Virus record (IMG/VR): IMGVR_UViG_3300045988_080637 | Span: 1-13,638 of that record | Origin: a virus | Length of the DNA stretch: 13,638 nt | Strand: one strand, 5' to 3' | Shown here: piece after piece, positions 1,284-13,638 of the stretch | Layout: every line of letters starts with the position of its first letter | How positions within the stretch are numbered: position 1 is the first letter of the stretch | Notes under the pieces: generated by a model | The model's database searches: none | The model's input: the letters and a program-made list of their open reading frames with translations, nothing else | What the model was told of the DNA's origin: nothing | Position numbers and translations under genes: made by a program

Positions 1284-3302
1284 ATGTTAAGCGTATATGA
1301 TGGAATCCAAAAAGTAACGGCGTTAGCGCCTGATAATCCACGGGCTAAAATCGTATACGCTAATGCGCTGATGGCATTTGACATTGAAACAACTCGGCTT
1401 GAAGATGATAATGCTGTAATGTACATTTGGCAATGCGGGCTATGTGTGGATGGAGAATACTATATCACATATGGTAGAACGTGGGAAGAATGGACTGCAT
1501 TACAGGAAGCAATAAATGCGCGACTTGGCGGAATTACAATAATTTGTCTTGTTCACAATCTTTCCTATGAGTTCCAATTTCTTGCCGGGCTTTACGAATT
1601 TTCCGATGTGAAATGCCTTAAAGCCCGGAAAATACTAGCCGCTACATGCGGGTGCATTGAGTATCGCTGTTCCTATATTTGGACAAATAAAACGCTTTCA
1701 AAATTTCTGAAGGAAATGAATGTCCAGCACGTGAAGAAATCGGGAGCGGAATTTGACTATTCTAAATCCCGTTATCCGTGGACAAAACTTTCAGAAGCGG
1801 AGATTGAATATTGCCAAAATGACGTTATCGGTTTACTTGAAGCTGCCGAAAAGAAGATTTCGCAAGATGGCGACACTCTCTATACAGTTCCGCGCACGTC
1901 TACGGGATACGTGCGCCGTGATGCAAAACAAGCGTTAAGCCAAACACCACTTGGAGCGCTTAAACCCACAGAAGAGATTTACAGAAAACTTCGCAAGGCG
2001 TTCAGAGGTGGAAACACGCACGCGAACCGGTATTTCGTCGGCAAGGTTTTGACGGGCGTGCAATCGGTCGACCGTTCATCAAGCTATTCTGACGTTATGC
2101 TGAATAATAAGTTTCCAATGAAACCATTCAAGAAATGCCCAGATGGAATAGCAACTATTAGGAGGGCTTTTTCATCCGGGCTTGCAATTCTTTGTACGAT
2201 GAGCATAACAGGCGCCACCTTGCGCAATCCGTTGTGGGGGTGTCCTTATATACCTGTTAGCAAATGCCAAATGCTTATAAATCCTATGGAAGATAACGGA
2301 CGAGTTCTTGAAGCGGATGCGCTGACGATTGAAGTAACAGAAGTAGATATACAGATAATTCTTGAAGAATATGATGGCGAATTTGATTTTACAGATATAT
2401 ATACGGCGGAGAAGGACTATTTGCCAAAACCATTTACGGATTGTATAAAACGATACTACACAAACAAAACTTCGCTTAAAGGAATCGCCGGAGGTGAATA
2501 TGAATACATGAAAAGTAAGAATTTGTTAAATAGCTTATACGGCATGACAGCCACTGACCCGGGGAAAGATGATGTTATTTTTGACGGTGTAGAATACATT
2601 CAGCAGGAAACGGACGTAATTAAAAATATCAAAAAATCATTCATGCCATATCAATGGGGCGTATGGGTTACAGCGTACGCAAGGCTTGAGTTGGAAGGAA
2701 TGATAAAGATTGCGGGGAATAATTTCGTTTATGCCGATACGGATAGCTGTAAATATATAAATTCAGAATCAATTAGTTATGAAGACTATAATAATAAACG
2801 CAAATCAGCATCCCTTGCGCATGGGGCATGTGCCGTAGACCCAAACGGAATAATGCATTATATGGGTGTTGCAGAAACAGAGGGGGAATATTACCAGTTT
2901 TTAACATGGGGGGCGAAAAAATATGCATCACAGGATGAAAAGGGACATATAGACATAACTATTGCGGGTGTGCGCAAAAATTCCAGCAAAAACGCTGCTG
3001 GTGATATAGTGGAATGGGGAGGTGGTGACGAACTGGAAGAAGCAGGTGGACTCGTAAAATTCGCGCCCGGGTTTGTTTTCCGAAAGGCAGGCGGGCTTGA
3101 AAGCGTTTACAATGACCATGTATGCAAGACAATTAGCGTTGATGGACACGAGTTACCAATAACCCGAAATGTATGCTTGCGTCCTTCAACATATGCGGTG
3201 GGAATTAGTTACAAATACGCGGGCTTACTCGAAGCGTTGCAGAACACTTATATAAGTGTTGACGCCGACCGTAATTTATGCTATAATCTTATTAGGCGAT
3301 AA
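1284..3302 (+). CDS. Protein-primed family-B DNA polymerase (phi29 gp2-like), 672 aa
   Basis: Motifs seen: Exo I AFDIETT; Exo II VHNLSYEFQF; Exo III YCQNDV; motif A VDRSSSYSDVM; motif B KSKNLLNSLYGMTA; motif C YADTDS; KxY GAKKYA. Confidence 0.97.
   Translation: MLSVYDGIQKVTALAPDNPRAKIVYANALMAFDIETTRLEDDNAVMYIWQCGLCVDGEYYITYGRTWEEWTALQEAINARLGGITIICLVHNLSYEFQFLAGLYEFSDVKCLKARKILAATCGCIEYRCSYIWTNKTLSKFLKEMNVQHVKKSGAEFDYSKSRYPWTKLSEAEIEYCQNDVIGLLEAAEKKISQDGDTLYTVPRTSTGYVRRDAKQALSQTPLGALKPTEEIYRKLRKAFRGGNTHANRYFVGKVLTGVQSVDRSSSYSDVMLNNKFPMKPFKKCPDGIATIRRAFSSGLAILCTMSITGATLRNPLWGCPYIPVSKCQMLINPMEDNGRVLEADALTIEVTEVDIQIILEEYDGEFDFTDIYTAEKDYLPKPFTDCIKRYYTNKTSLKGIAGGEYEYMKSKNLLNSLYGMTATDPGKDDVIFDGVEYIQQETDVIKNIKKSFMPYQWGVWVTAYARLELEGMIKIAGNNFVYADTDSCKYINSESISYEDYNNKRKSASLAHGACAVDPNGIMHYMGVAETEGEYYQFLTWGAKKYASQDEKGHIDITIAGVRKNSSKNAAGDIVEWGGGDELEEAGGLVKFAPGFVFRKAGGLESVYNDHVCKTISVDGHELPITRNVCLRPSTYAVGISYKYAGLLEALQNTYISVDADRNLCYNLIRR
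3245..3258. promoter_or_regulatory. 14-bp perfect palindrome CACTTATATAAGTG abutting the -35 box of P3259 (possible operator or activator site)
   Basis: CACTTAT/ATAAGTG is self-complementary and ends 1 nt before TTGACG (3259). About one such palindrome is expected by chance in 13.6 kb, so only the position is suggestive. Confidence 0.25.
3259..3287 (+). promoter_or_regulatory. Near-consensus sigma-A/sigma-70 type promoter inside the 3' end of polB
   Basis: TTGACG (3259-3264), 17-nt spacer ending TGc (3279-3281), then TATAAT (3282-3287): a -35, extended -10 and perfect -10. Confidence 0.7.
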
Positions 3303-3333: not shown

Positions 3334-3684
3334 ATGAGTAACACGAAGACTAATCAGAGCATTTCCCCGGCGGAACTGTACAAGCTGACGCTTTCCCGCG
3401 AAGGGCATACGATGTCAGAGTTGATGACGAAAACCGTACGTGTCGATGCATGGGCGGTGTCTGAAACAGTTGATAGTAACGGTGAGTTTAAGCCGCGTTG
3501 CGGGATTATCGTAGACGGCGTGCCATATATCACGAATGGTAGAGCGTTCAGCGAAAGGCTTCTTGCCATTGTTGATTATCTGGGCACGGCGGGTATGGAC
3601 GATGTGGGGTTCAAGATGCAAATTACACAGATTCGGAGCAAAAATAACCGCAACTACACGTCTTGCGAATTGATTTTCGATTGA
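3334..3684 (+). CDS. Hypothetical 116-aa protein; candidate abundant DNA-binding/SSB-like replication accessory protein
   Basis: AGGAGGG lies 7 nt before ATG 3334. Own strong promoter (3259) and own terminator (3695) imply high expression. It sits next to the replication genes. Function is inferred from context only. Confidence 0.7.
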   Translation: MSNTKTNQSISPAELYKLTLSREGHTMSELMTKTVRVDAWAVSETVDSNGEFKPRCGIIVDGVPYITNGRAFSERLLAIVDYLGTAGMDDVGFKMQITQIRSKNNRNYTSCELIFD

Positions 3685-3694
3685 CGCTGTCAGA

Positions 3695-3725
3695 GGCAGG
3701 GCGAATAACCCTGCCTTTTATTTTT
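3695..3725 (+). terminator. Rho-independent terminator
   Basis: GGCAGGG (3695-3701), loop CGAATAA, CCCTGCC (3709-3715), followed by TTTTATTTTT (3716-3725). Confidence 0.85.
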
Positions 3726-3735
3726 AGGAGGGCGT

Positions 3736-4755
3736 ATGAATAACCTATTTTTGGTAAATGGCTATGTTGACATGGCACGAATCATAGAGCAAAAATATCC
3801 ATTTATACTGATGACGGGTGCACGCGGAACGGGCAAGACGTACGGCGCACTTAAATATGTGATTGAGCACAAAATGAAATTTATCTATATGAGGCGGACA
3901 AAACTGCAAGCGGATGTTATCAGTGCACCGGAAATGTCACCGTTTGCACCAGTGTGTGATGACATCAACGTCCCATTTGAAATGGATAAAGTTTCTAAAG
4001 AAGCAACCGCAGTATATATCAATGAGGAAAGCATCCCTGCCGGGTATATCATGGCACTGTCTGGCGTGTCAAACATTCGTGGCTTTTCAGCGCATGATAT
4101 AGAAATTATTATATTTGATGAATTTATACCAGAATCACATGAGCGCAGAATAAAAAATGAGGGTGATGCATTTTTTAACGCCTACGAAACAATAAACCGC
4201 AATCGTGAACTTGATGGTAAACCTCCTGTGAAATGCCTTTGCCTTGCGAATAGCAATAGCATTGTAAACCCGATTTTCCAAAGTTTAGGGCTTATCACGA
4301 TTGCTTATAAGATGGCAGAGAATGACACGCAGGAATATAAAGACGGTGAACGCGGATTGTATCTGATAAACTTGCGCAATAGCCCGATCAGCAAGAAGAA
4401 GGGAGAAACCGCGCTTTATCGGCTTCTAAGGGATAATAAAATAAAAGATATGTCGTTGGAAAACCGGTTTTTGGATAAGCCTGTATTGCAGACCATGAGC
4501 GCGAACCTAAAAGAGTACACACCGGTTGTAACTTGCGGTGAAATTACCGTTTACAGGCACAAGAGCAACCACACATATTATATCAGCCCACACGGGCAAG
4601 GAACACGCCCGATATACAGTACAACGGAAAATGATTGTTTACGTTTTCGCACGCTTTATCGGTATCTGATGCTGGCATATATTGACAGGAAAATATTTTG
4701 CGAATCCCCTGCTTGCGAAATTGTTTTTTGTCAATATTTTGGAATAGTTAAATAA
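3736..4755 (+). CDS. DNA encapsidation (packaging) ATPase, phi29 gp16-like, 339 aa
   Basis: Walker A MTGARGTGKTYG and Walker B IIIFDEFIPE. Collinear matches to remembered phi29 gp16 blocks: GARGxGKxY, FIYxRR, FDEFI(R/P)E, C(I/L)CL(S/A)N..S(V/I)VNP, MSL(D/E)N(Q/R)F. Confidence 0.93.
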   Translation: MNNLFLVNGYVDMARIIEQKYPFILMTGARGTGKTYGALKYVIEHKMKFIYMRRTKLQADVISAPEMSPFAPVCDDINVPFEMDKVSKEATAVYINEESIPAGYIMALSGVSNIRGFSAHDIEIIIFDEFIPESHERRIKNEGDAFFNAYETINRNRELDGKPPVKCLCLANSNSIVNPIFQSLGLITIAYKMAENDTQEYKDGERGLYLINLRNSPISKKKGETALYRLLRDNKIKDMSLENRFLDKPVLQTMSANLKEYTPVVTCGEITVYRHKSNHTYYISPHGQGTRPIYSTTENDCLRFRTLYRYLMLAYIDRKIFCESPACEIVFCQYFGIVK

Positions 4756-4758
4756 GTC

Positions 4759-4787
4759 TTGACAAATTGTAAAAATTATGATACATT
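4759..4787 (+). promoter_or_regulatory. Near-consensus sigma-A/sigma-70 type promoter directly after the ATPase stop
   Basis: TTGACA (4759-4764), 17-nt spacer ending TGa (4779-4781), then TACATT (4782-4787). Its upstream flank TTAAATAAGTC is nearly identical to that of P3259. Confidence 0.65.
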
Positions 4788-4793
4788 AGTTGT

Positions 4794-4876
4794 GGCAATA
4801 GGGAGGCTCGAACGACAACCCCGGAAGGGTGAGCATGGCATAGTCGTATGCCGCGAACCCTATTGCTATTTTATTT
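4794..4876 (+). ncRNA. Candidate ~80-nt structured RNA (three-way junction) ending in a U-tract; function unknown (pRNA-like RNA or terminated late-operon leader)
   Basis: The predicted TSS of P4759 falls at the foot of helix P1, 4795-4803 GCAATAGGG : 4858-4866 CCCTATTGC (9 WC bp, extendable by G.U and A-U pairs). P2 is 4807-4810:4830-4833 with bulge AACGACAAC and a CCC/GGG stem capped by GGAA (GNRA). P3 is 4837-4842:4847-4852 capped by GUCG. U-tract TTTTATTT lies at 4869-4876. There is no SD or credible start codon before 4887. Confidence 0.5.
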
Positions 4877-4902
4877 CCGGGAATACGGGAGGTGCTGATA
4901 TT

Positions 4903-5097
4903 GTGGATGTTACTGCAATCACGCAACTTGTAACTACGGTTGGATTTCCCATTGCTTGTACATTTGTCTTGTTTTCCTATCTTAACAAGGAGCGGGAACA
5001 GCACGCGGCTGAAACAAAAGAACTAAAAGATGCGCTGAACAATAACACGTTGGTTATCCAAAAATTGATTGATAAAATGGATGGTGATGCAAATTGA
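4903..5097 (+). CDS. Putative holin: small single-TM membrane protein (YvrJ-like GFPI motif), 64 aa, GTG start
   Basis: GGGAGGTG (4887-4894) lies 8 nt before GTG 4903. It has one hydrophobic helix (AITQLVTTVGFPIACTFVLFSYL) and a charged coiled C-terminus. Its stop overlaps the endolysin start (TTGA). Confidence 0.55.
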   Translation: MDVTAITQLVTTVGFPIACTFVLFSYLNKEREQHAAETKELKDALNNNTLVIQKLIDKMDGDAN

Positions 5098-5582
5098 CTG
5101 CGGCAGAATGGGCGGAAAAAATCAGCGCAGACCGTAATACTCTAATCGGCATCCCATATGCAACACTCGATTGTCAAGCATTTGTCGAATTTTGCCTAAA
5201 AAAATACGCAGGAATTTCCAGAAACTGGCGCGGCTCAAATGACATGTGGCGCAACGCTGTGCATGATAAGTTGGCAGATTTTGGAAACATCGAAGATGGC
5301 GAATGGGTATTTACCATCAAAAATGATGGCAAAGAACCTAAGCGTTACACCGATGGTGTAAACGCTGCACACGTCGGCATCTACATCGGCAATGGGGAGG
5401 TTATGCATTCTACCACAGGGGGAGTACAAATGGATAAAATTACTAATACACGCTGGACACATCGCGCGAAAGCAAATTGCCTTGATTATGCTAAGGATGT
5501 AACGACAACTGAAAATAGTTTCAATGCCCTATATAACGACCTTGTAGCACTTGTAAATAAATATGGAGGTAACAAACAATGA
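5094..5582 (+). CDS. NlpC/P60 (C40) family cell-wall peptidase, endolysin, 162 aa, TTG start
   Basis: Catalytic-Cys context IPYATLDCQAFVEF and His context AAHVGIYIGNGEVMHS are typical of NlpC/P60. Follows the holin candidate with a 4-nt overlap. Confidence 0.85.
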   Translation: MTAAEWAEKISADRNTLIGIPYATLDCQAFVEFCLKKYAGISRNWRGSNDMWRNAVHDKLADFGNIEDGEWVFTIKNDGKEPKRYTDGVNAAHVGIYIGNGEVMHSTTGGVQMDKITNTRWTHRAKANCLDYAKDVTTTENSFNALYNDLVALVNKYGGNKQ

Positions 5583-5911
5583 ATGTATCTGACATTTTGA
5601 CGCTGGCAAAAGCTGGATTTACGGCAGAGCAAATCGGGAAGCTGATGACCGTAGATGCACAGGCACCGGTGCCGGCACAGGCACAGGCGCCGGCACAGGC
5701 ACAGGCACCGGCACAGGCACAGGCACAGGCGCCGGCACCGGCACCGGCACAGGCACCGGATAATACACAGGCGCAGTTTGACAAGGTTTTCCAGCAGATT
5801 GCGAACCTTACGGGAATTGTGCAGAGGGGAAACATCGCAAACGCGCATCAGCCGGATTCACAGCCGCTGACGGCGGAGGATGTTCTTTCGGAAATCATCC
5901 GCCCGAACTAA
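5579..5911 (+). CDS. Putative scaffolding protein with (AQ/AP)n linker, 110 aa
   Basis: GGAGGT lies 8 nt before ATG 5579. A small helical/low-complexity protein immediately upstream of the major capsid gene, as gp7 is in phi29. Call is by synteny. Confidence 0.5.
   Translation: MNVSDILTLAKAGFTAEQIGKLMTVDAQAPVPAQAQAPAQAQAPAQAQAQAPAPAPAQAPDNTQAQFDKVFQQIANLTGIVQRGNIANAHQPDSQPLTAEDVLSEIIRPN
5657..5758 (+). repeat. Hexanucleotide tandem repeat (GCA-CAG / GCA-CCG)n, 102 nt, in-frame
   Basis: 17 consecutive 6-nt units of type GCACAG/GCACCG (variants GCGCCG, GTGCCG) encoding AQAPVPAQAQAPAQAQAPAQAQAQAPAPAPAQAP. Confidence 0.9.
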
Positions 5912-5926
5912 TGGAGGTGTTAAAAT

Positions 5927-7102
5927 ATGGCTAATACGCTTAGTATTGATAAAATTAGTACCCTGCTTAAAGCAGTTCTCAAGGATGCAACCGGGCAGGA
6001 TACAGCCGCGCTTGACACTAAGCAGTTGTTGACGCTCGGACAGAAGGCGCTGAAAACAGGTGCTGACCCTGTAATGAATGCAATTTCACAGATGCTATCG
6101 CGAACAATTTTTTCCAGCCGCCCATACAAAGCGAAGTTTGAGGGTATGCGGATTCCCGGCGACCAGTGGGGGAACTGGGTGAGGAAAATTAAGACGATTG
6201 ATGACCCGGACGACCTGACCGACAACCCTTACTGTGATTTGACCGACGGGCAGAGCGTCGACCAGTACACGATTCACAAGCCTAAGGTTGCACAGTTTAA
6301 CTTCTACGGACAGCAAAGCTACGAATATGAAAAAACGATTTTTGAAACGCAGTTAAACACGGCGTTTAATTCGGCAGAAGATTTCGGTGCATTTATTTCG
6401 ATGATTCTTACAAACATGAATAACAAAATCGAGAAGACGCACGAAGAAACCGCGCGCGCGACCGTTGCGGGTTTTGCCGCCGGCAAGATTGCGCAGAATG
6501 CCGATGTTATTCATCTGCTGACGGAGTACAACACCGCGACTGGACTGGAACTGACTGCCACGACCGTAATGCAACCGGCAAACTATAAGGTGTTTACCCA
6601 GTGGGCGTTTTCGCGCCTTGCTAACTTGTCCGATATGCTGACGGAGTATTCCAGTCTTTACCAGACCAATAGCGCAGATGGCGTATTTCTCCAGCACAGC
6701 CCGAAATCCGCACAGCGCGTGTATCTTAACTCTATGTTTATGCATCAAACCAACATGATGGCGCTTGCGGATACGTACCACGATAATTTCTTGCGTATGG
6801 CGGGTGATGTTGAATATGTCAATTTCTGGCAGATTATGACTGACCCCCAGAAAATCAACGTTGTAAAGCCGCAGTACCTTGCGGCTGACGGTACTATCGC
6901 CACTGCAACGAAAGACGTAAATCAGGGCAATGTTCTCGGAATTATTTGTGACCGTGACGCATTCGGGTATAGTCCAATTCTCACGCGGCAGAGGGTGACG
7001 CCTCCTAACGCGAAGGGCGAATATTACAATATTTTCTGGAAGTACAACGAGCGGCACGCCATCGACTTTACTGAAAAGGGTATTGTTATTCTGATGGATT
7101 AA
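5927..7102 (+). CDS. Major capsid protein, phi29 gp8-like (HK97 fold inferred), 391 aa
   Basis: GGAGGTG lies 7 nt before ATG. The block QLNTAFNSAEDFGAFISMILTNMNNKIE aligns by eye with phi29 gp8 [28 protein letters not shown]. Position after the scaffold and the following strong terminator-like helix fit an abundant late protein. Confidence 0.8.
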   Translation: MANTLSIDKISTLLKAVLKDATGQDTAALDTKQLLTLGQKALKTGADPVMNAISQMLSRTIFSSRPYKAKFEGMRIPGDQWGNWVRKIKTIDDPDDLTDNPYCDLTDGQSVDQYTIHKPKVAQFNFYGQQSYEYEKTIFETQLNTAFNSAEDFGAFISMILTNMNNKIEKTHEETARATVAGFAAGKIAQNADVIHLLTEYNTATGLELTATTVMQPANYKVFTQWAFSRLANLSDMLTEYSSLYQTNSADGVFLQHSPKSAQRVYLNSMFMHQTNMMALADTYHDNFLRMAGDVEYVNFWQIMTDPQKINVVKPQYLAADGTIATATKDVNQGNVLGIICDRDAFGYSPILTRQRVTPPNAKGEYYNIFWKYNERHAIDFTEKGIVILMD

Positions 7103-8006: not shown

Positions 8007-9536
8007 ATGCAAATAAGATTGTATGCGTTCCGAAAGCGCATTAATTCCACGAAACGCCCAACTACAAAAAATGAACAGGGGCAGCTATCTTTTCTGACAG
8101 AATGCACGCTCAAAGATTTAACAAGCGTTCTTGCACCGCAAGTTGCGCTAATTTTTCCGGAGCATCAACTTTCCCCGGCAGCTTACAATTACGCATACAT
8201 TCCAGATTTCCATCGTTATTATTTTGTCACCGACATTATGTTCGACCGCAACCGCGTGATTTATACACTTTCCTGCGATGTTCTTGCGACTTACTGGGAT
8301 TCTCTCAAAGAATCTACACAGTATATTTTGCGTTCTGCAAGCGCTGGCGATTTATCAATAGTTGATAGCCTTTACCCTGTGACTTCTAAAATTACAAGCG
8401 GGGGGGCTGATGTTACAGGATGGGGGTTACCAACTCTTGCATCTGGCTATTATGTTCTGGGTATCGTAAACAACGCAACAAATTCAGTAGGTGGTATCGC
8501 CTATTATGTGTTGTCTAACGCACAGTTCGCTTCATTGCGGCATGCCCTTTTGACAGATTTTTCTTACATGGGAATAGCGGACAGTGAAATTTCGGCGGAA
8601 TTGCAACGCGCGATTATAAATCCTTTTCAATATATAGTTTCGTGCCGATGGTTCCCCGAAAAACCGCCGACGTCGGGCGCTGTTTCATCCATAACAATTT
8701 GTGGATGGGAATTTACAGGCGGAACAGCATCATTGCTTGCTGCTGATGGCGTTATCACGAAGGGAATAACTGTAAATAATATTGGCGTTCATCCTCAAAT
8801 TGGGCGTGGAAGATGGCTTGCATACGCGCCATATTCTACCTACTACCTATATTATCCGCCGTTTGGTGTAATACAATTAGACCCAACAAAACTACAAAAC
8901 ACATCTATTGGAATCGGCATTAGGGTTGACTGTGTATCGGGAATTGGGAGTATAACTATATCATCCGGCGAAAATCTCTTGTATTACGCCGAATGTAAAA
9001 TTGGTGTAGATATACAGCTTGCGCAAACAAGTTGGATAGGCGGCGCAATCTCTGACGTTACAAACGTTATCGGTTCAGCGGCAGCTGGCGCGAATGCTGG
9101 CGCGCTCGGCACTGGAGGAAGCGGAGCGCTTGCGGTATTAGGCGCTGGAGCAGGTGCTTTAGTTGGGATGACGCAAACTAACACTTTCAAGGGAGCGCTT
9201 GCCGGTATTGGTTCAGGTGAAACAACGTTTGCGGGAATCGGCACGGCGGCACATGCCGCTAACGGCGTTTTAAGTGTGCAGGGAAACAACGGAAATTTGT
9301 CAACCTATATTGTACAACCGCACATCTTTTGGAGGTTTGCCCATGTGGTAAATTCTGACAATGAAGATTTGGGAACACCATGTTGTAAGAAGCTAAAACT
9401 TTCAACGCTTACGGGGTTTACCACAGTTCAGCACCCCGATGTTGACGTGGTTCTTGCTTCGCAGCCGGAAATATCTTTGCTGATGCAATATTTATCATCG
9501 GGATTTTTCATTGAAGAAGGTGAATCTAATGGCTAA
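8007..9536 (+). CDS. Tail knob / distal tube protein, phi29 gp9-like, 509 aa
   Basis: N-terminal block YAYIPDFHRYYFVTDIMFDRNRVIYTLSCDVLATYW resembles phi29 gp9 [30 protein letters not shown]. A long Gly/Ala-rich hydrophobic segment resembles the gp9 membrane-active loop. C-terminal GFTTVQ...EISLLMQYLSSGF resembles the gp9 C-terminus. Confidence 0.8.
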   Translation: MQIRLYAFRKRINSTKRPTTKNEQGQLSFLTECTLKDLTSVLAPQVALIFPEHQLSPAAYNYAYIPDFHRYYFVTDIMFDRNRVIYTLSCDVLATYWDSLKESTQYILRSASAGDLSIVDSLYPVTSKITSGGADVTGWGLPTLASGYYVLGIVNNATNSVGGIAYYVLSNAQFASLRHALLTDFSYMGIADSEISAELQRAIINPFQYIVSCRWFPEKPPTSGAVSSITICGWEFTGGTASLLAADGVITKGITVNNIGVHPQIGRGRWLAYAPYSTYYLYYPPFGVIQLDPTKLQNTSIGIGIRVDCVSGIGSITISSGENLLYYAECKIGVDIQLAQTSWIGGAISDVTNVIGSAAAGANAGALGTGGSGALAVLGAGAGALVGMTQTNTFKGALAGIGSGETTFAGIGTAAHAANGVLSVQGNNGNLSTYIVQPHIFWRFAHVVNSDNEDLGTPCCKKLKLSTLTGFTTVQHPDVDVVLASQPEISLLMQYLSSGFFIEEGESNG

Positions 9537-10455
9537 TAATCCACCCTTTGATTACAACCACATAAATGCCTATGAATCGAGCATTTCCCCATCTACTTGC
9601 CACACAAAAAACACAGCGCTTTTCCAATTTTATCAACGCTATTTATTTCAGAAACTGACAAGCCAATTCAAATGGAGCTTACCCGAAGGTTGGAGCGATA
9701 CGTATTTTCTCGGCTGTTTATATGCATGGGGAAGCGTTGCGATTTTTAATAGCAAGCGTTACGGTGTAATTCCGCAGGCGGGTGCATTATATGGATACAA
9801 TGTTTTTTATCAGCCAACAAGCGTGATGATTGCAAATCCCCTTTTGCCACCGATGCGCTTGCAAATTGATAAGGATTGCGTTCTTTTCCGATTGCAACGC
9901 GATTACCACGGAGCGCTGGACATTGTTAATTATTACGCGGACTTGCTTGCAACTTCTGTAGAATCGCTTGCCATGAACATAATGAACTCTAAACTTTCAT
10001 ATGTGTTCGCCTGCGGTTCAAAAAATGCCGCACAAACTGGAAAAGAATTGATGGATAGGGTAACATCTGGTGAATTAGCTGTATGGGTGGATAAAGCCCT
10101 TTTTAACGATGATGGTTCTCCCTCGTGGGCGCCGTTCGCGCAAAACGTAGGGCAAAACTATATCGCGGACAGAATACTTTCCAACATGAGGCAAATTGAA
10201 GCAGAATTTGATACCCGCGTAGGGATTCCGACTTGTAACACCGACAAAAAAGAACGGTTGATTAGCGCTGAAGCGGAACGGAACGACGTTGAAACAGACG
10301 CAATCGTTGCGCAATGGTTTGATACCATTCAGGAGTGCATCCGCAACGTACAGAATGCGTTCGGTGTGGCAATCACTTGTGAGCGACGTTATCCGATTGA
10401 GCATAAAACAAATGGAGGTGATAAGATTGAGCGTGATGCTGGCTACAATGTATAA
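9529..10455 (+). CDS. Portal / head-tail connector (upper collar), phi29 gp10-like, 308 aa
   Basis: ATG 9529 follows GAAGGTG. Size matches phi29 gp10 (309 aa). Blocks FKWSLPEGW...GSVAIF and NTDKKERLISAEAERNDVETD align with gp10 FEWENLPPT...GYVGFY and [21 protein letters not shown]. Confidence 0.85.
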   Translation: MANNPPFDYNHINAYESSISPSTCHTKNTALFQFYQRYLFQKLTSQFKWSLPEGWSDTYFLGCLYAWGSVAIFNSKRYGVIPQAGALYGYNVFYQPTSVMIANPLLPPMRLQIDKDCVLFRLQRDYHGALDIVNYYADLLATSVESLAMNIMNSKLSYVFACGSKNAAQTGKELMDRVTSGELAVWVDKALFNDDGSPSWAPFAQNVGQNYIADRILSNMRQIEAEFDTRVGIPTCNTDKKERLISAEAERNDVETDAIVAQWFDTIQECIRNVQNAFGVAITCERRYPIEHKTNGGDKIERDAGYNV

Positions 10456-11037: not shown

Positions 11038-12492
11038 ATGGGTATTTGGGAACAATTCCCGTTTACGAATTTCCACGAACAGAATCTTGATTGGGCTTAT
11101 AATTCAATCAAAGAACTTGATGGAAGAGTTGACACGCTGGAAAAGAGCGGCAATGTAAGCAAAGAATACGTGGACGAACAGGATGCGGCGCTTGACGAAA
11201 AAATCAGCGGCGAACGTTCCGCGCGAACAACCGCAGACCAACAACTCCAAAATCAGATTACAGCGCACACGACAAGTATCAGCGGTCTTAATGGAAGAAT
11301 GGTTGAGGCGGAAAAGAACATAGGCGTGAAGCAGAATGTGCCTAATTTCAGAAGCATTTGGAGCACAATTGGTGATTACGAGGCTACACAGGCAATCGGC
11401 AGTAAGTTGCTGCAAGTTCAGACGGAGGGCAAGGAAAATCATCGTTCTATTGCTGGAACTGGTGGCGTGTATGATATTACTAAAGGCACAATTCAGGCGC
11501 GTCTAAATACAATCGAGGACGCGCTGAAACCCGGTTCGCTCGTAAAACAGAACAGCACAGCGGTTATCTCCATTCCGGCAAATACGGCAAGAGGTACGAG
11601 GTTTAAGCCCACGGCGGCTATTCCAGAGTTTGTCTTTGCCATTGCGGAACGTGAAACGGCAGTAACAACGGATGTTGGAAACTCTGATAATATTATTCTG
11701 CTGTGTTCGCCTCTGATTACCGAAAGTGGTGCTAAATACAATTCTTACGAAATCGAAGCTGATTGCAAGGGCGAAAACACAGCTGATTATATGCGCGTTC
11801 GTGTTAGAACTTTTGTATTCGTGGAAGGAAATGACAGCGGGGAACAGTACGCAACTACATCATATGTAGATGAAAAAACTGAACAGCTTGCAACAGAATT
11901 GGGTAACGTAGAGGCGGAAGCGCAGGATGCGTACACCAAGGCGGAGACGGCGGACAACAACGCCGCAATTGCCAAGTCAACCGCAACAACGGCGGCTTAT
12001 ACGGCTTCAACTGCACTGGAAAAAATCGGAACGAAACCAGAAGAATCAAAATATAACACCATCTGGGAAACGCTGGGAACATGGTCGGAAAATGTCCCCA
12101 TGGCGATCAGAATTAATCCTGCCTATAATTGGAGCTGGAACAATCGGTCTGCTATCAATGGTACTTCGGACTATCCCACAGACAAGGCTTCTATCAATTC
12201 GCGCTTGTCAGAGTTGGAAACAGCTATTGCTAAATTCCAGAATATGCCAAAAATCGCAAGGGGACACGTGGCAGCGTACCAAGACCAAGACGTTATTATT
12301 GATTATCAGTCAGCAGGATTTACCGAAATCCCAACGGTTGTCGCGACTTTTGCTAACACGGGTGCAACCGCCGACAGTGTAACGCGCAGTCAGTTGATTT
12401 TTGCAAAAACTACAAGCTCAGCAAAAATCAGGCTTTCCGGTACTTCCAGTCACGAGGCGTTTGGCGTAGATTGGATTGCGGTTGGTGTGTAA
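11038..12492 (+). CDS. Tail fibre / appendage receptor-binding protein with coiled coils and two duplicated lectin-like modules, 484 aa
   Basis: AGGAGGTG lies 8 nt before ATG 11038. The N-terminal FPFTNFHEQNLDWAYNSIKEL motif is common in Firmicutes phage fibres. Heptad-like segments are present. An internal module repeat is seen (see findings). The C-terminal FTEIPTVVATF...GVDWIAVG resembles an H-type lectin domain. Confidence 0.65.
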   Translation: MGIWEQFPFTNFHEQNLDWAYNSIKELDGRVDTLEKSGNVSKEYVDEQDAALDEKISGERSARTTADQQLQNQITAHTTSISGLNGRMVEAEKNIGVKQNVPNFRSIWSTIGDYEATQAIGSKLLQVQTEGKENHRSIAGTGGVYDITKGTIQARLNTIEDALKPGSLVKQNSTAVISIPANTARGTRFKPTAAIPEFVFAIAERETAVTTDVGNSDNIILLCSPLITESGAKYNSYEIEADCKGENTADYMRVRVRTFVFVEGNDSGEQYATTSYVDEKTEQLATELGNVEAEAQDAYTKAETADNNAAIAKSTATTAAYTASTALEKIGTKPEESKYNTIWETLGTWSENVPMAIRINPAYNWSWNNRSAINGTSDYPTDKASINSRLSELETAIAKFQNMPKIARGHVAAYQDQDVIIDYQSAGFTEIPTVVATFANTGATADSVTRSQLIFAKTTSSAKIRLSGTSSHEAFGVDWIAVGV

Positions 12493-12493
12493 C

Positions 12494-12524
12494 AATAAAG
12501 GGAGGGCATTGCCCTCCCTTTATT
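12494..12524. terminator. Bidirectional rho-independent terminator between the convergent late (+) and right-arm (-) operons
   Basis: AATAAAGGGAGGGC (12494-12507), loop ATT, GCCCTCCCTTTATT (12511-12524): a 14-bp perfect stem with A/T runs on both flanks, serving both strands. Confidence 0.85.
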
Positions 12525-12768
12525 CACCCCATGCAGTTAGATGCGCGCCCCCACGAAAACGGGTTGCAACCCAGCGATAGCCCCCGGCACGGCGGCGACG
12601 ATAGAGCTTTGCGCACTGCGTACCCTTAGAAATGCTGGTAGCAATTTCCATTGACCTCATTGCAAATGTGAGCGAATAAAATTCAAACCGTTTGATACTG
12701 CTTTCATCATTCCTTTCGATTTCTCTTCCATCGGCGTCGTACCGAATAAGCACATAATTAGCTTTCAT
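12520..12768 (-). CDS. Hypothetical early protein, 82 aa, Arg-rich basic C-terminus
   Basis: GGGAGG lies 7 nt before ATG 12768. Start overlaps the upstream ORF. C-terminus KLYRRRRAGGYRWVATRFRGG is strongly basic, hinting at nucleic-acid binding, which is speculative. Confidence 0.6.
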   Translation of the reverse strand: MKANYVLIRYDADGREIERNDESSIKRFEFYSLTFAMRSMEIATSISKGTQCAKLYRRRRAGGYRWVATRFRGGAHLTAWGE

Positions 12769-12976
12769 CAGGCTTCCTCCCTTTATATAATCTCTTTATT
12801 TCACCATCATTTATAGAAATAAGCTGTACTTCTTTCGCTACATAACGTGGGGTGTCCCCATCATGCCTTACAAGGGCTTTACAAAGTTGTAAAGCATTCG
12901 GAATATCGCCCTCTCCGCTCATATCACTAACTGTAATCTCACCATCTTTCCATAAAATTATCGCTATAATGACCAT
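12758..12976 (-). CDS. Hypothetical early protein, 72 aa
   Basis: GAGGTG lies 7 nt before ATG 12976. Tightly packed in the right-arm operon. No motif recognised. Confidence 0.6.
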   Translation of the reverse strand: MVIIAIILWKDGEITVSDMSGEGDIPNALQLCKALVRHDGDTPRYVAKEVQLISINDGEIKRLYKGRKPDES

Positions 12977-13579: not shown

Positions 13580-13638
13580 TTCTGGTTTGTGAGGTTTTCC
13601 TTCCTCTCTACAAGTATATAATAGCACTTTCAGGGGCT
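13580..13638. repeat. Right inverted terminal repeat (59 bp, perfect)
   Basis: Reverse complement of nt 1-59. ITRs together with a protein-primed PolB are the hallmark of terminal-protein-capped linear genomes. Confidence 0.95.
13618..13626 (-). promoter_or_regulatory. Putative extended -10 promoter inside the right ITR, reading inward
   Basis: Mirror copy of 13-21. Only 69 nt separate ATG 13569 from the genome end, so the right-arm operon promoter must lie in the ITR. Confidence 0.3.

Follow-up and report, generated by a model that had tools for sequence, protein, structure and literature searches.

Since 1987, packaging RNA (pRNA) has been regarded as peculiar to phage phi29 and its Bacillus relatives. 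A 2024 review that covers Guelinviridae and Amedibacillus phages describes pRNA as a feature unique to phi29 and the Bacillus phages related to it (PMC11476376), and a 2025 Infernal survey with models of the phi29, GA1 and DLc1 RNAs added 12 new pRNAs, of which those named come from Bacillus-type phages (PMC12670572). The known pRNAs share about 12% sequence identity and a conserved secondary structure; the CE and D loops mediate their self-association, and contact with the ATPase is made through the A helices (PMC5066667). The two pairing loops covary, and two G/C pairs can suffice for the interaction (PMC12670572). As drawn in Rfam, phi29 pRNA runs from the A helix through the C helix, a 9-nt bulge on the 5' side, the E hairpin, an uninterrupted 3' strand, a 3-nt linker and the D hairpin back to the A helix. 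A pRNA-like RNA in the archaeal ampullaviruses, an unrelated virus group, receives a mention in a preprint (bioRxiv 10.1101/2020.07.06.188573). Here we describe a 13,638-base stretch of viral DNA (IMG/VR record IMGVR_UViG_3300045988_080637; hereafter the window) in which a small three-way-junction RNA lies directly behind the gene for a phi29 gp16-type packaging ATPase. We tentatively read this region as the gene for a small structured phage RNA that would be a miniature structural analogue of phi29 pRNA, an assignment to which we give a little less than even credence.

The minimum free energy (MFE) fold of positions 4790–4880 is exactly a three-way junction (−33.4 kcal/mol, z = −2.87, with 1 of 200 shuffles as stable). 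Its closing helix P1 has a core in which GCAATAGGG (4795–4803) pairs with CCCTATTGC (4858–4866), and extends to the pair 4792:4869. Two arms leave the junction: P2, which continues past a bulge into the E hairpin, and the P3 hairpin, whose loop is complementary to part of the bulge (Table 1). An earlier, sequence-only reading of this DNA had proposed a promoter, a three-way-junction RNA and the complementarity between bulge and loop; the sequence check and the MFE fold bear out all three, and every coordinate given there proved correct. One detail has to be revised. The E stem had been capped with the GNRA tetraloop GGAA, and the window does allow CCC/GGG with GGAA, but the relatives described below show a conserved five-nucleotide loop, CGGAA, on a covarying stem (for example UCC/GGA, GCUC/GAGC or CAGAG/CUCUG). 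Most members have CGGAA as their pentaloop; CAGAA, UGGAA, CUGAA and CCGAA also occur as variants. In P2, the pair G4810.U4830 is replaced by A-U in L002, L004, L011 and L012.

Relatives were gathered by gp16 homology. The IMG/VR sets comprise 13 close genomes and 75 distant ones with gp16 40–49% identical, and an independent set comprises 80 contigs of ~12–15 kb from gut and rumen assemblies that had been binned into metagenome-assembled genomes (MAGs). The same architecture is present once per genome in more than 130 related loci from the two collections and in the cultured phage AD70P3; nearly every locus that covers the region shows it directly after a near-consensus promoter. Among 54 distinct family members, 51 can be parsed as a three-way junction. 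Across the family the RNA measures 67–90 nt, with a P1 of 6–21 bp, a J1/2 of 0–2 nt, a P2 of 4–6 bp, a bulge of 7–8 nt on the 5' side only, an E stem of 3–5 bp that carries the pentaloop, a 3' strand that continues unbroken through P2, a J2/3 of 0–2 nt, a P3 of 4–7 bp with a 4–9-nt loop, and a purine-rich J3/1 of 4–6 nt. A covariance model built from the relatives (R1) has its sole match in the window at 4797–4864 (E about 1e-12), and gives exactly one match per locus in 77 of 86 IMG/VR sources.

On a plain MAFFT alignment RNAalifold returned the E hairpin only, since P1, P2 and P3 are out of register. We therefore replaced this approach with the structural parse and an alignment fitted to the covariance model. 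The fitted alignment has a covariation score of 0.617, compared with 0.183 ± 0.010 for column shuffles and at most 0.225 for controls with slid partners. Covariation is seen in all four helices. The E stem is 100% paired and each of its four modelled pairs varies on both sides, as do all seven modelled pairs of P1. Because some clades, including that of the window, sit one column out of register in P1, these pairing percentages are underestimates.

The bulge and the P3 loop were compared in two ways. With the register left free, their longest Watson–Crick match averages 4.48 nt, as opposed to 2.46 ± 0.17 with permuted partners and a maximum of 3.19 in 2000 permutations; the independent collection gives 4.02 versus 2.36 ± 0.12. 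In fixed register the bulge/loop helix is 75% paired, and three of its positions show GC, AU, CG and UA. Complementarity is kept through 19 different words, among them CGAC/GUCG in the window and, elsewhere, GGUCA/UGACC, GACCA/UGGUC, AGUCA/UGACU, GAAAC/GUUUC, GUGCA/UGCAC, GCACA/UGUGC, UUGCA/UGCAA, GAUCA/UGAUC and ACAGC/GCUGU. One contig carries an 8-bp pair (AAAAGGAA/UUCCUUUU), and in MT836155 the partners of the window have changed places, GUCG being the bulge word and CGAC the loop word. The CGAC/GUCG match of the window belongs to a pair that covaries across the family, which is genuine base pairing over a long range.

The RNA matches no Rfam family. Rfam 15, with its riboswitch, leader and ribozyme families, returned nothing relevant for the whole window or for the element under permissive filters, and a scan of seven related genomes at gathering thresholds gave no match. 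Rfam finds no pRNA in Cp-1 either. A literature search found no report of such an RNA outside Bacillus-type phages, and blastn against GenBank phages gave only short matches, in unannotated fecal contigs. Whatever its function, the RNA represents a new, strongly supported family that is absent from Rfam.

R1 does not reach all members of this family. It matches 37 of the 80 contigs in the independent set, of which 52 score above the highest shuffled-genome score with a structural descriptor. The divergent members AD70P3, L079 and L085 are missed by R1 and were recognised by eye and with the descriptor, as were four fecal contigs in GenBank with gp16 ~29–36% identical to that of the window (tblastn). 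The element is retained in relatives whose gp16 is only ~31–37% identical to that of the window. In AD70P3 (L094), the cassette occupies an unannotated 123-nt gap after the packaging gene (5831–5953), where TTGACA, a 17-nt spacer and TGATATATT are followed by the three-way junction (RNA at 5862–5933) with the loop CCGAA and the bulge/loop pair AUCC/GGAU. With free loop sequence the descriptor gives ~25 false matches per Mb of shuffled sequence, and isolated matches were discarded. A weak candidate three-way junction in the Clostridium innocuum phages CI55P1 (L101, 4785–4854) and CI130P1 (L103, 4813–4882), with an ACCA/UGGU bulge/loop match, was not counted: its stability does not exceed that of shuffles (z of about +0.3 to +0.5), and it is represented by two near-identical sequences only. 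These two phages have no gap after the packaging gene and a gap of ~150 nt before it, on the polymerase B side, which contains a promoter-like TGTGCTACAAT.

Genomes of this clade also appear as single contigs of ~12–15 kb (L117–L196) in MAGs of Clostridia, Bacteroidales, Spirochaetia, Methanobrevibacter and Chlamydiaceae. Since such disparate assignments are evidently binning artefacts, MAG taxonomy is unreliable as a host call for these phages.

The promoter in front of the RNA scores 10/12 plus a TG extension; its 17-nt spacer ends in TGA and thereby creates an extended −10. The −35 hexamer TTGACA is invariant across all 13 genomes aligned with the window. Throughout the family, a near-consensus promoter, usually with a perfect TTGACA, precedes the RNA in 68 of 74 distinct contexts, and its −10 ends 2–11 nt before the first base of P1. 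Transcription is predicted to start near 4793–4796, and given this short distance the 5' end of the RNA would be flush with P1, as it is in pRNA. Coding potential of 4759–4902 was rejected: the PHROG holin match begins only at residue 52 of the 112-aa open reading frame (ORF) that spans the region, and the ATG of the relatives' holin genes aligns with GTG 4903, with indels upstream. The sequence-only reading had come to the same non-coding interpretation.

Just 5' of this promoter, inside the 3' end of gp16, lies an imperfect 23-nt inverted repeat (4679–4701/4715–4737, 78% complementary) with one TTGACA per arm (4682–4687 on the plus strand, 4729–4734 on the minus strand). A promoter-like site is predicted on the minus strand at 4765–4736. 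The repeat could be an operator or a divergent promoter.

Within the window clade (13 genomes), mean pairwise identity is 94.7% in the RNA core, 87.8% in the 3' end of gp16, 73.7% in the holin gene and 64.6% in the spacer, which makes the RNA core the most conserved local segment. The linkage to gp16 implied by the sequence-only reading is not conserved. In one clade (MT835998 and the contigs behind L019–L023) the structural module is inverted, so that the RNA lies toward the opposite end of the genome, on the other strand and at ~8 kb from gp16, and the order is still promoter, RNA, holin and late genes; both the RNA and the promoter have moved with the holin and late genes and not with gp16. 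Scanning IMG/VR with 17-mers brought up the inverted-module genomes, and the independent set adds two more cases. Three other 17-mer matches (L105, L108 and L109), in unrelated contexts, were chance matches. The invariant position of the element is the 5' end of the late operon.

The helix order of the RNA and the side of its bulge are those of phi29 pRNA. In both molecules the transcript's two ends pair into the closing helix, the second arm is a simple hairpin, and the nucleotides complementary to its loop occupy the bulge's 3' part. Because of this unusual topology, the covarying self-complementary bulge/loop pair and the flush 5' end, and because the element is kept universally in a clade whose defining trait is a motor of the pRNA-dependent type, we favor a pRNA analogue. 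As such it would be the first packaging RNA beyond the Bacillus phi29 group, a minimal pRNA of ~70 nt that forms a ring on the portal by kissing of bulge and loop and docks the gp16 ATPase, a proposal that we hold to be slightly less probable than its negation. We liken the element to the pRNA kind, which stops short of assigning it membership.

What we infer beyond the fold is intermolecular pairing, binding to the prohead and a role in packaging. In such a mechanism the near-consensus sigma-70-type promoter would start transcription at the first bases of P1. The two RNA ends form P1, and the junction bears the P2/E arm, with its 5' bulge and CGGAA cap, next to the P3 hairpin. The bulge of one molecule would pair with the P3 loop of the next, and this contact would build a head-to-tail ring at the prohead's portal vertex. 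Contacts with protein, or tertiary contacts, may be made by the CGGAA loop and the purine-rich J3/1. P1 would point at the gp16-type ATPase, which itself has neither a nuclease nor a portal-docking domain. The RNA would be made as the 5' end of the late transcript and could be released by termination at P1 and the U-rich tract in the window clade, by a separate terminator in one other clade, and otherwise by processing. Production of one RNA per late mRNA would provide a sensible stoichiometry relative to the capsid protein.

Table 1. Features of the three-way-junction RNA, its surroundings and the genome (positions refer to the window unless another genome is named)
Feature	Position	Strand	Remarks
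Whole three-way-junction RNA, ~75 nt	4792–4869	+	MFE fold, covariance model, structural parse
P1, 5' strand	4792–4803	+	pairs with 4858–4869; 9 Watson–Crick pairs plus G.U, U-A, G.U
P1, 3' strand	4858–4869	+	
P2, 5' strand GCUCG	4806–4810	+	pairs with UGAGC 4830–4834
Bulge AACGACAA	4811–4818	+	5' side of arm; CGAC 4813–4816 complementary to P3 loop
E hairpin	4819–4829	+	stem CCC/GGG 4819–4821:4827–4829; pentaloop CGGAA 4822–4826
P3 hairpin GGCAUA-GUCG-UAUGCC	4837–4852	+	pairs 4837–4842:4847–4852; loop GUCG 4843–4846
J3/1 linker GCGAA	4853–4857	+	family consensus purine-rich, near AAGAA
−35 hexamer TTGACA	4759–4764	+	begins four bases past the gp16 stop
Extended −10 TGATACATT	4779–4787	+	−10 box TACATT 4782–4787
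U-rich tract TTTTATTT	4869–4876	+	directly 3' of P1; with P1 resembles an intrinsic terminator
UUCCGG box	4875–4880	+	7 nt 5' of the Shine–Dalgarno; complementary to CCGGAA of the E loop
Shine–Dalgarno GGGAGGTG	4887–4894	+	serves GTG 4903
Holin gene	GTG 4903 to 5097	+	first gene 3' of the RNA; PHROG match
Protein-primed type-B DNA polymerase	1284–3302		PF03175
phi29 gp16-type packaging ATPase	3736–4755		PF05894; stop TAA 4753–4755
NlpC/P60 lysin			encoded in the window
phi29-type major capsid protein	5927–7102		PF25622
Tail lysozyme			encoded in the window
gp10-type connector	within 9511–10455		PF05352
Inverted-module loci	12892–12974 (L098, MT835998)	−	further loci L106, L107, L110–L116; L155, L156

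The window carries perfect 59-bp inverted terminal repeats (1–59 and 13580–13638), and is therefore the complete linear genome of a phi29-like phage of the protein-primed type. By gp16, its nearest cultured relatives are the Amedibacillus phages AD70P2 and AD70P3 (~37% identity to the gp16 of the window), the latter of which is classified in Guelinviridae (OP172639); gp16 of phi29 itself is ~26–28% identical. The top-scoring canonical terminator of the genome, AGAGGCAGGGCGAATAACCCTGCCTTT followed by TATTTTT (3692–3718), stands between the ORF at 3334–3684 and gp16, and suggests that gp16 is transcribed apart from the replication genes. A strong hairpin at 12482–12530 (AAAGGGAGGGCAUUGCCCUCCCUUUAU) stands between the end of the rightward genes (12492) and small leftward ORFs of the right genome end, and probably terminates transcription in both directions; it has a sub-threshold Rfam match to a small RNA that consists mostly of a terminator. 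Within the putative scaffold gene (ORF 5579–5911), G+C-rich internal repeats at 5666–5759 (CCGGTGCCGGCACAGGCACAGGCGCCGGC...) would encode a low-complexity repeat. A 23-bp inverted repeat (7103–7125/7170–7192, 87% complementary, 44-nt spacer) comes immediately behind the stop codon of the capsid gene and has TTTT after it; it resembles an attenuator or terminator, which late transcription would need to cross.

Several observations weigh against a pRNA analogue. With 67–90 nt, the RNA reaches only ~60% of the size of phi29 pRNA (117–174 nt). The A helix of phi29 has ~25 bp and a CCA bulge that is needed for packaging and ATPase function, whereas P1 has no conserved bulge, and its variable length would be odd for a strut of fixed geometry. 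The junction of pRNA is U-rich, unlike the very short J2/3 and the purine-rich J3/1 of this RNA. RF00044, the Rfam model that scores 145 bits on phi29, has no match at E ≤ 10 in the window, nor in 4740–4910 with laxer filters, and R1 gives no match on phi29. The connector's N-terminus (MANNPPFDYNHINAYESS..., beginning MANNPPFDYNH) is without a basic RKR-like cluster. Of four residues in the C-terminal domain of phi29 gp16 that have been reported near pRNA (bioRxiv 10.1101/2020.07.06.188573), two, K259 and Y273, are kept in kind and two are not. The sequence-only reading had offered a pRNA analogue as the first of two hypotheses and had itself listed the shorter RNA, the missing sequence similarity and the connector without RKR against it; these objections hold. 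The covarying bulge/loop pair, the shared helix order and the phi29-type motor proteins strengthen that hypothesis, and the absence of homology, the short and variable P1 and the connector N-terminus speak against it.

Other counterarguments arise from the position of the element. The RNA is always the 5' leader of the holin/late operon, and since most clades have no terminator ahead of the Shine–Dalgarno sequence, a free RNA would need processing. The bulge/loop pairing could equally be explained as an intramolecular pseudoknot; the sequence data and general rules of three-way-junction geometry do not separate intermolecular from intramolecular pairing. In half of the contexts, a UUCCGG box near the Shine–Dalgarno sequence hints at a role in cis.

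Taken together as a reading of their own, these points would make the RNA a cis-acting 5' leader of the late operon, from holin to tail, with the bulge/P3-loop pairing as an internal pseudoknot that compacts the junction. We consider this the main rival and a serious possibility, although we judge the balance to lie against it. Such a leader could carry host RNA polymerase through terminators in the manner of put RNAs, bind a ligand or protein as a riboswitch or operator, or protect the 5' end of the mRNA and adjust the translation of the holin gene by means of a UUCCGG box that alternates between the E loop and the Shine–Dalgarno sequence as its partner. In its favor, the neighbourhood of promoter, RNA and first late gene in the same orientation is the only invariant one and persists even in the inverted modules. 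That P1 begins at the predicted start of transcription also fits a leader. In most clades no terminator separates the RNA from the Shine–Dalgarno sequence, and in many neither a U-tract nor a hairpin is present and the RNA reaches the Shine–Dalgarno sequence of the holin gene within 15–35 nt. At least three clades have terminator-like signals directly after the RNA, which implies a need for read-through into the late genes. Between the RNA and the scaffold and capsid genes (5100–5927), we found no plus-strand promoter of comparable strength. The near invariance of CGGAA, despite proteins that have diverged to ~31–37% identity, would fit a conserved host partner.

The CCGG box bears on the same reading. 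CCGG occurs in 40 of 80 distinct downstream contexts, compared with a background of 0.20, at 7–10 nt upstream of the holin Shine–Dalgarno sequence, and it also follows the separate terminator of the L026 clade. In the fold of 4794–4915 the box of the window pairs with the Shine–Dalgarno sequence. It could be a translational switch or a coincidence, and whether it belongs to the RNA element is uncertain: it is missing from half of the contexts while CGGAA is kept there, and it is absent from four of five contexts with a CAGAA loop and from the context with a CCGAA loop. A cis-acting leader is further disfavored by the inconsistency of its expression platform, which would be a P1 terminator in some clades, a separate terminator in one and nothing in most. 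The conserved nucleotides are not centred on the junction as they are in three-way-junction riboswitch aptamers, and J1/2 and J2/3 measure 0–2 nt. No Rfam riboswitch or leader family matches. Finally, the topology of pRNA in phages with the pRNA-dependent type of motor would have to be a coincidence.

The second hypothesis of the sequence-only reading was a late switch, in which a short RNA ends at P1 and the U-tract until a phage factor permits read-through, and the RNA is chiefly a terminator. In the window clade, a 12-bp P1 is indeed followed at once by UUUUAUUU or UUUUGUUUU, with 6–8 T in the first 9 nt, and P1 of the MT835998 clade by UUUUUGUAU; partial termination at this site is plausible in the window genome. 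In the L026 clade a separate terminator hairpin of canonical form comes immediately behind the RNA. The late genes of the window follow without an obvious second strong promoter. A U-rich tract nevertheless comes after P1 in only a minority of the 74 distinct contexts, those of the window clade and a few others. Since it is confined to certain clades, the switch may apply to that of the window but is not the general mechanism of the family. Many clades with neither U-tract nor hairpin keep the junction, the pentaloop and the bulge/loop pairing, none of which is needed for termination. The terminator scan did not call the site in the window, where the branched domain enclosed by P1 exceeds the loop limit of the scan. 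No antiterminator-like family was found among the window ORFs scanned against Pfam and PHROGs, of which several small ones are unannotated. We regard a terminator switch as an unlikely account of the RNA. The RNA might instead act in trans in some other capacity, for example as a decoy for host defence or in the regulation of mRNAs of host or phage, and its likeness to pRNA would then be convergent. This would suit the strong promoter, the compact stable fold, the invariant exposed loop and the lack of a known family, but we consider it very improbable: we identified no complementary target, the bulge has its covarying partner inside the same RNA, and retention of the element is universal in a clade that its packaging motor defines.

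If the RNA is a pRNA analogue, RNA-dependent packaging motors would be widespread among the abundant phi29-like phages of ~13 kb in gut and rumen, including the cultured Guelinviridae, and the essential core of pRNA would be far smaller than the 117-nt domain of phi29. A parallel mini-RNA in a large and mostly uncultured gut and rumen clade makes two questions testable, namely whether all gp16-type motors need an RNA adaptor and what a minimal functional pRNA is; the cultured Amedibacillus phages AD70P2 and AD70P3 are available for this purpose. If confirmed, the finding would give RNA nanotechnology a naturally diversified set of three-way-junction modules, all very small and with kissing pairs that can be programmed. 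Should the RNA instead be a cis-acting leader, it would still be a new and strongly covarying class of RNA, with control over the late operon in an abundant group of phages.

Among other described systems, the PR'-tR' 6S RNA of lambda, with antitermination by Q, resembles the locus in its constitutive strong late promoter and, for the window clade, in that a signal like a terminator precedes the genes for lysis and structure. It differs in that the terminator of the present family is not family-wide, no antiterminator-like family was matched, and the elaborate covarying fold goes beyond the needs of termination. The purine and THF-I riboswitches are likewise three-way-junction 5' leaders closed by a P1 beside an expression signal, with pairing between distal elements of the arms. 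In contrast to these, the junction strands of this RNA measure 0–2 nt and hold no conserved ligand pocket, and the sequences that pair are hypervariable. The put RNAs of phage HK022 are cis-acting, factor-independent antitermination RNAs with two stem-loops and no helix that closes the 5' and 3' ends. Like them, the RNA described here is a structured RNA of ~70 nt directly 3' of a strong phage promoter, at the head of an operon that contains terminators, and by analogy its conserved loops could contact RNA polymerase. Unlike them, it has a three-way junction closed by pairing of its 5' and 3' parts, and the two share no sequence similarity; we know of no bulge/loop complementarity in put RNAs.

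The ampullavirus RNA is a reported precedent for a pRNA-like RNA outside the Bacillus phages, and to our knowledge no comparative test like the present one has been applied to it. From phi29 pRNA, which is encoded at the genome's left end, the RNA differs by its place at the head of the late operon, by its near-invariant CGGAA pentaloop and by often being without a terminator of its own. In common with phi29, the window phage has a gp10-type connector, a gp16-type ATPase, a phi29-type capsid protein and protein-primed replication, and in common with pRNA its RNA has a bulge complementary to a hairpin loop, over 3–8 nt here, in a pair that covaries as the sequence drifts.

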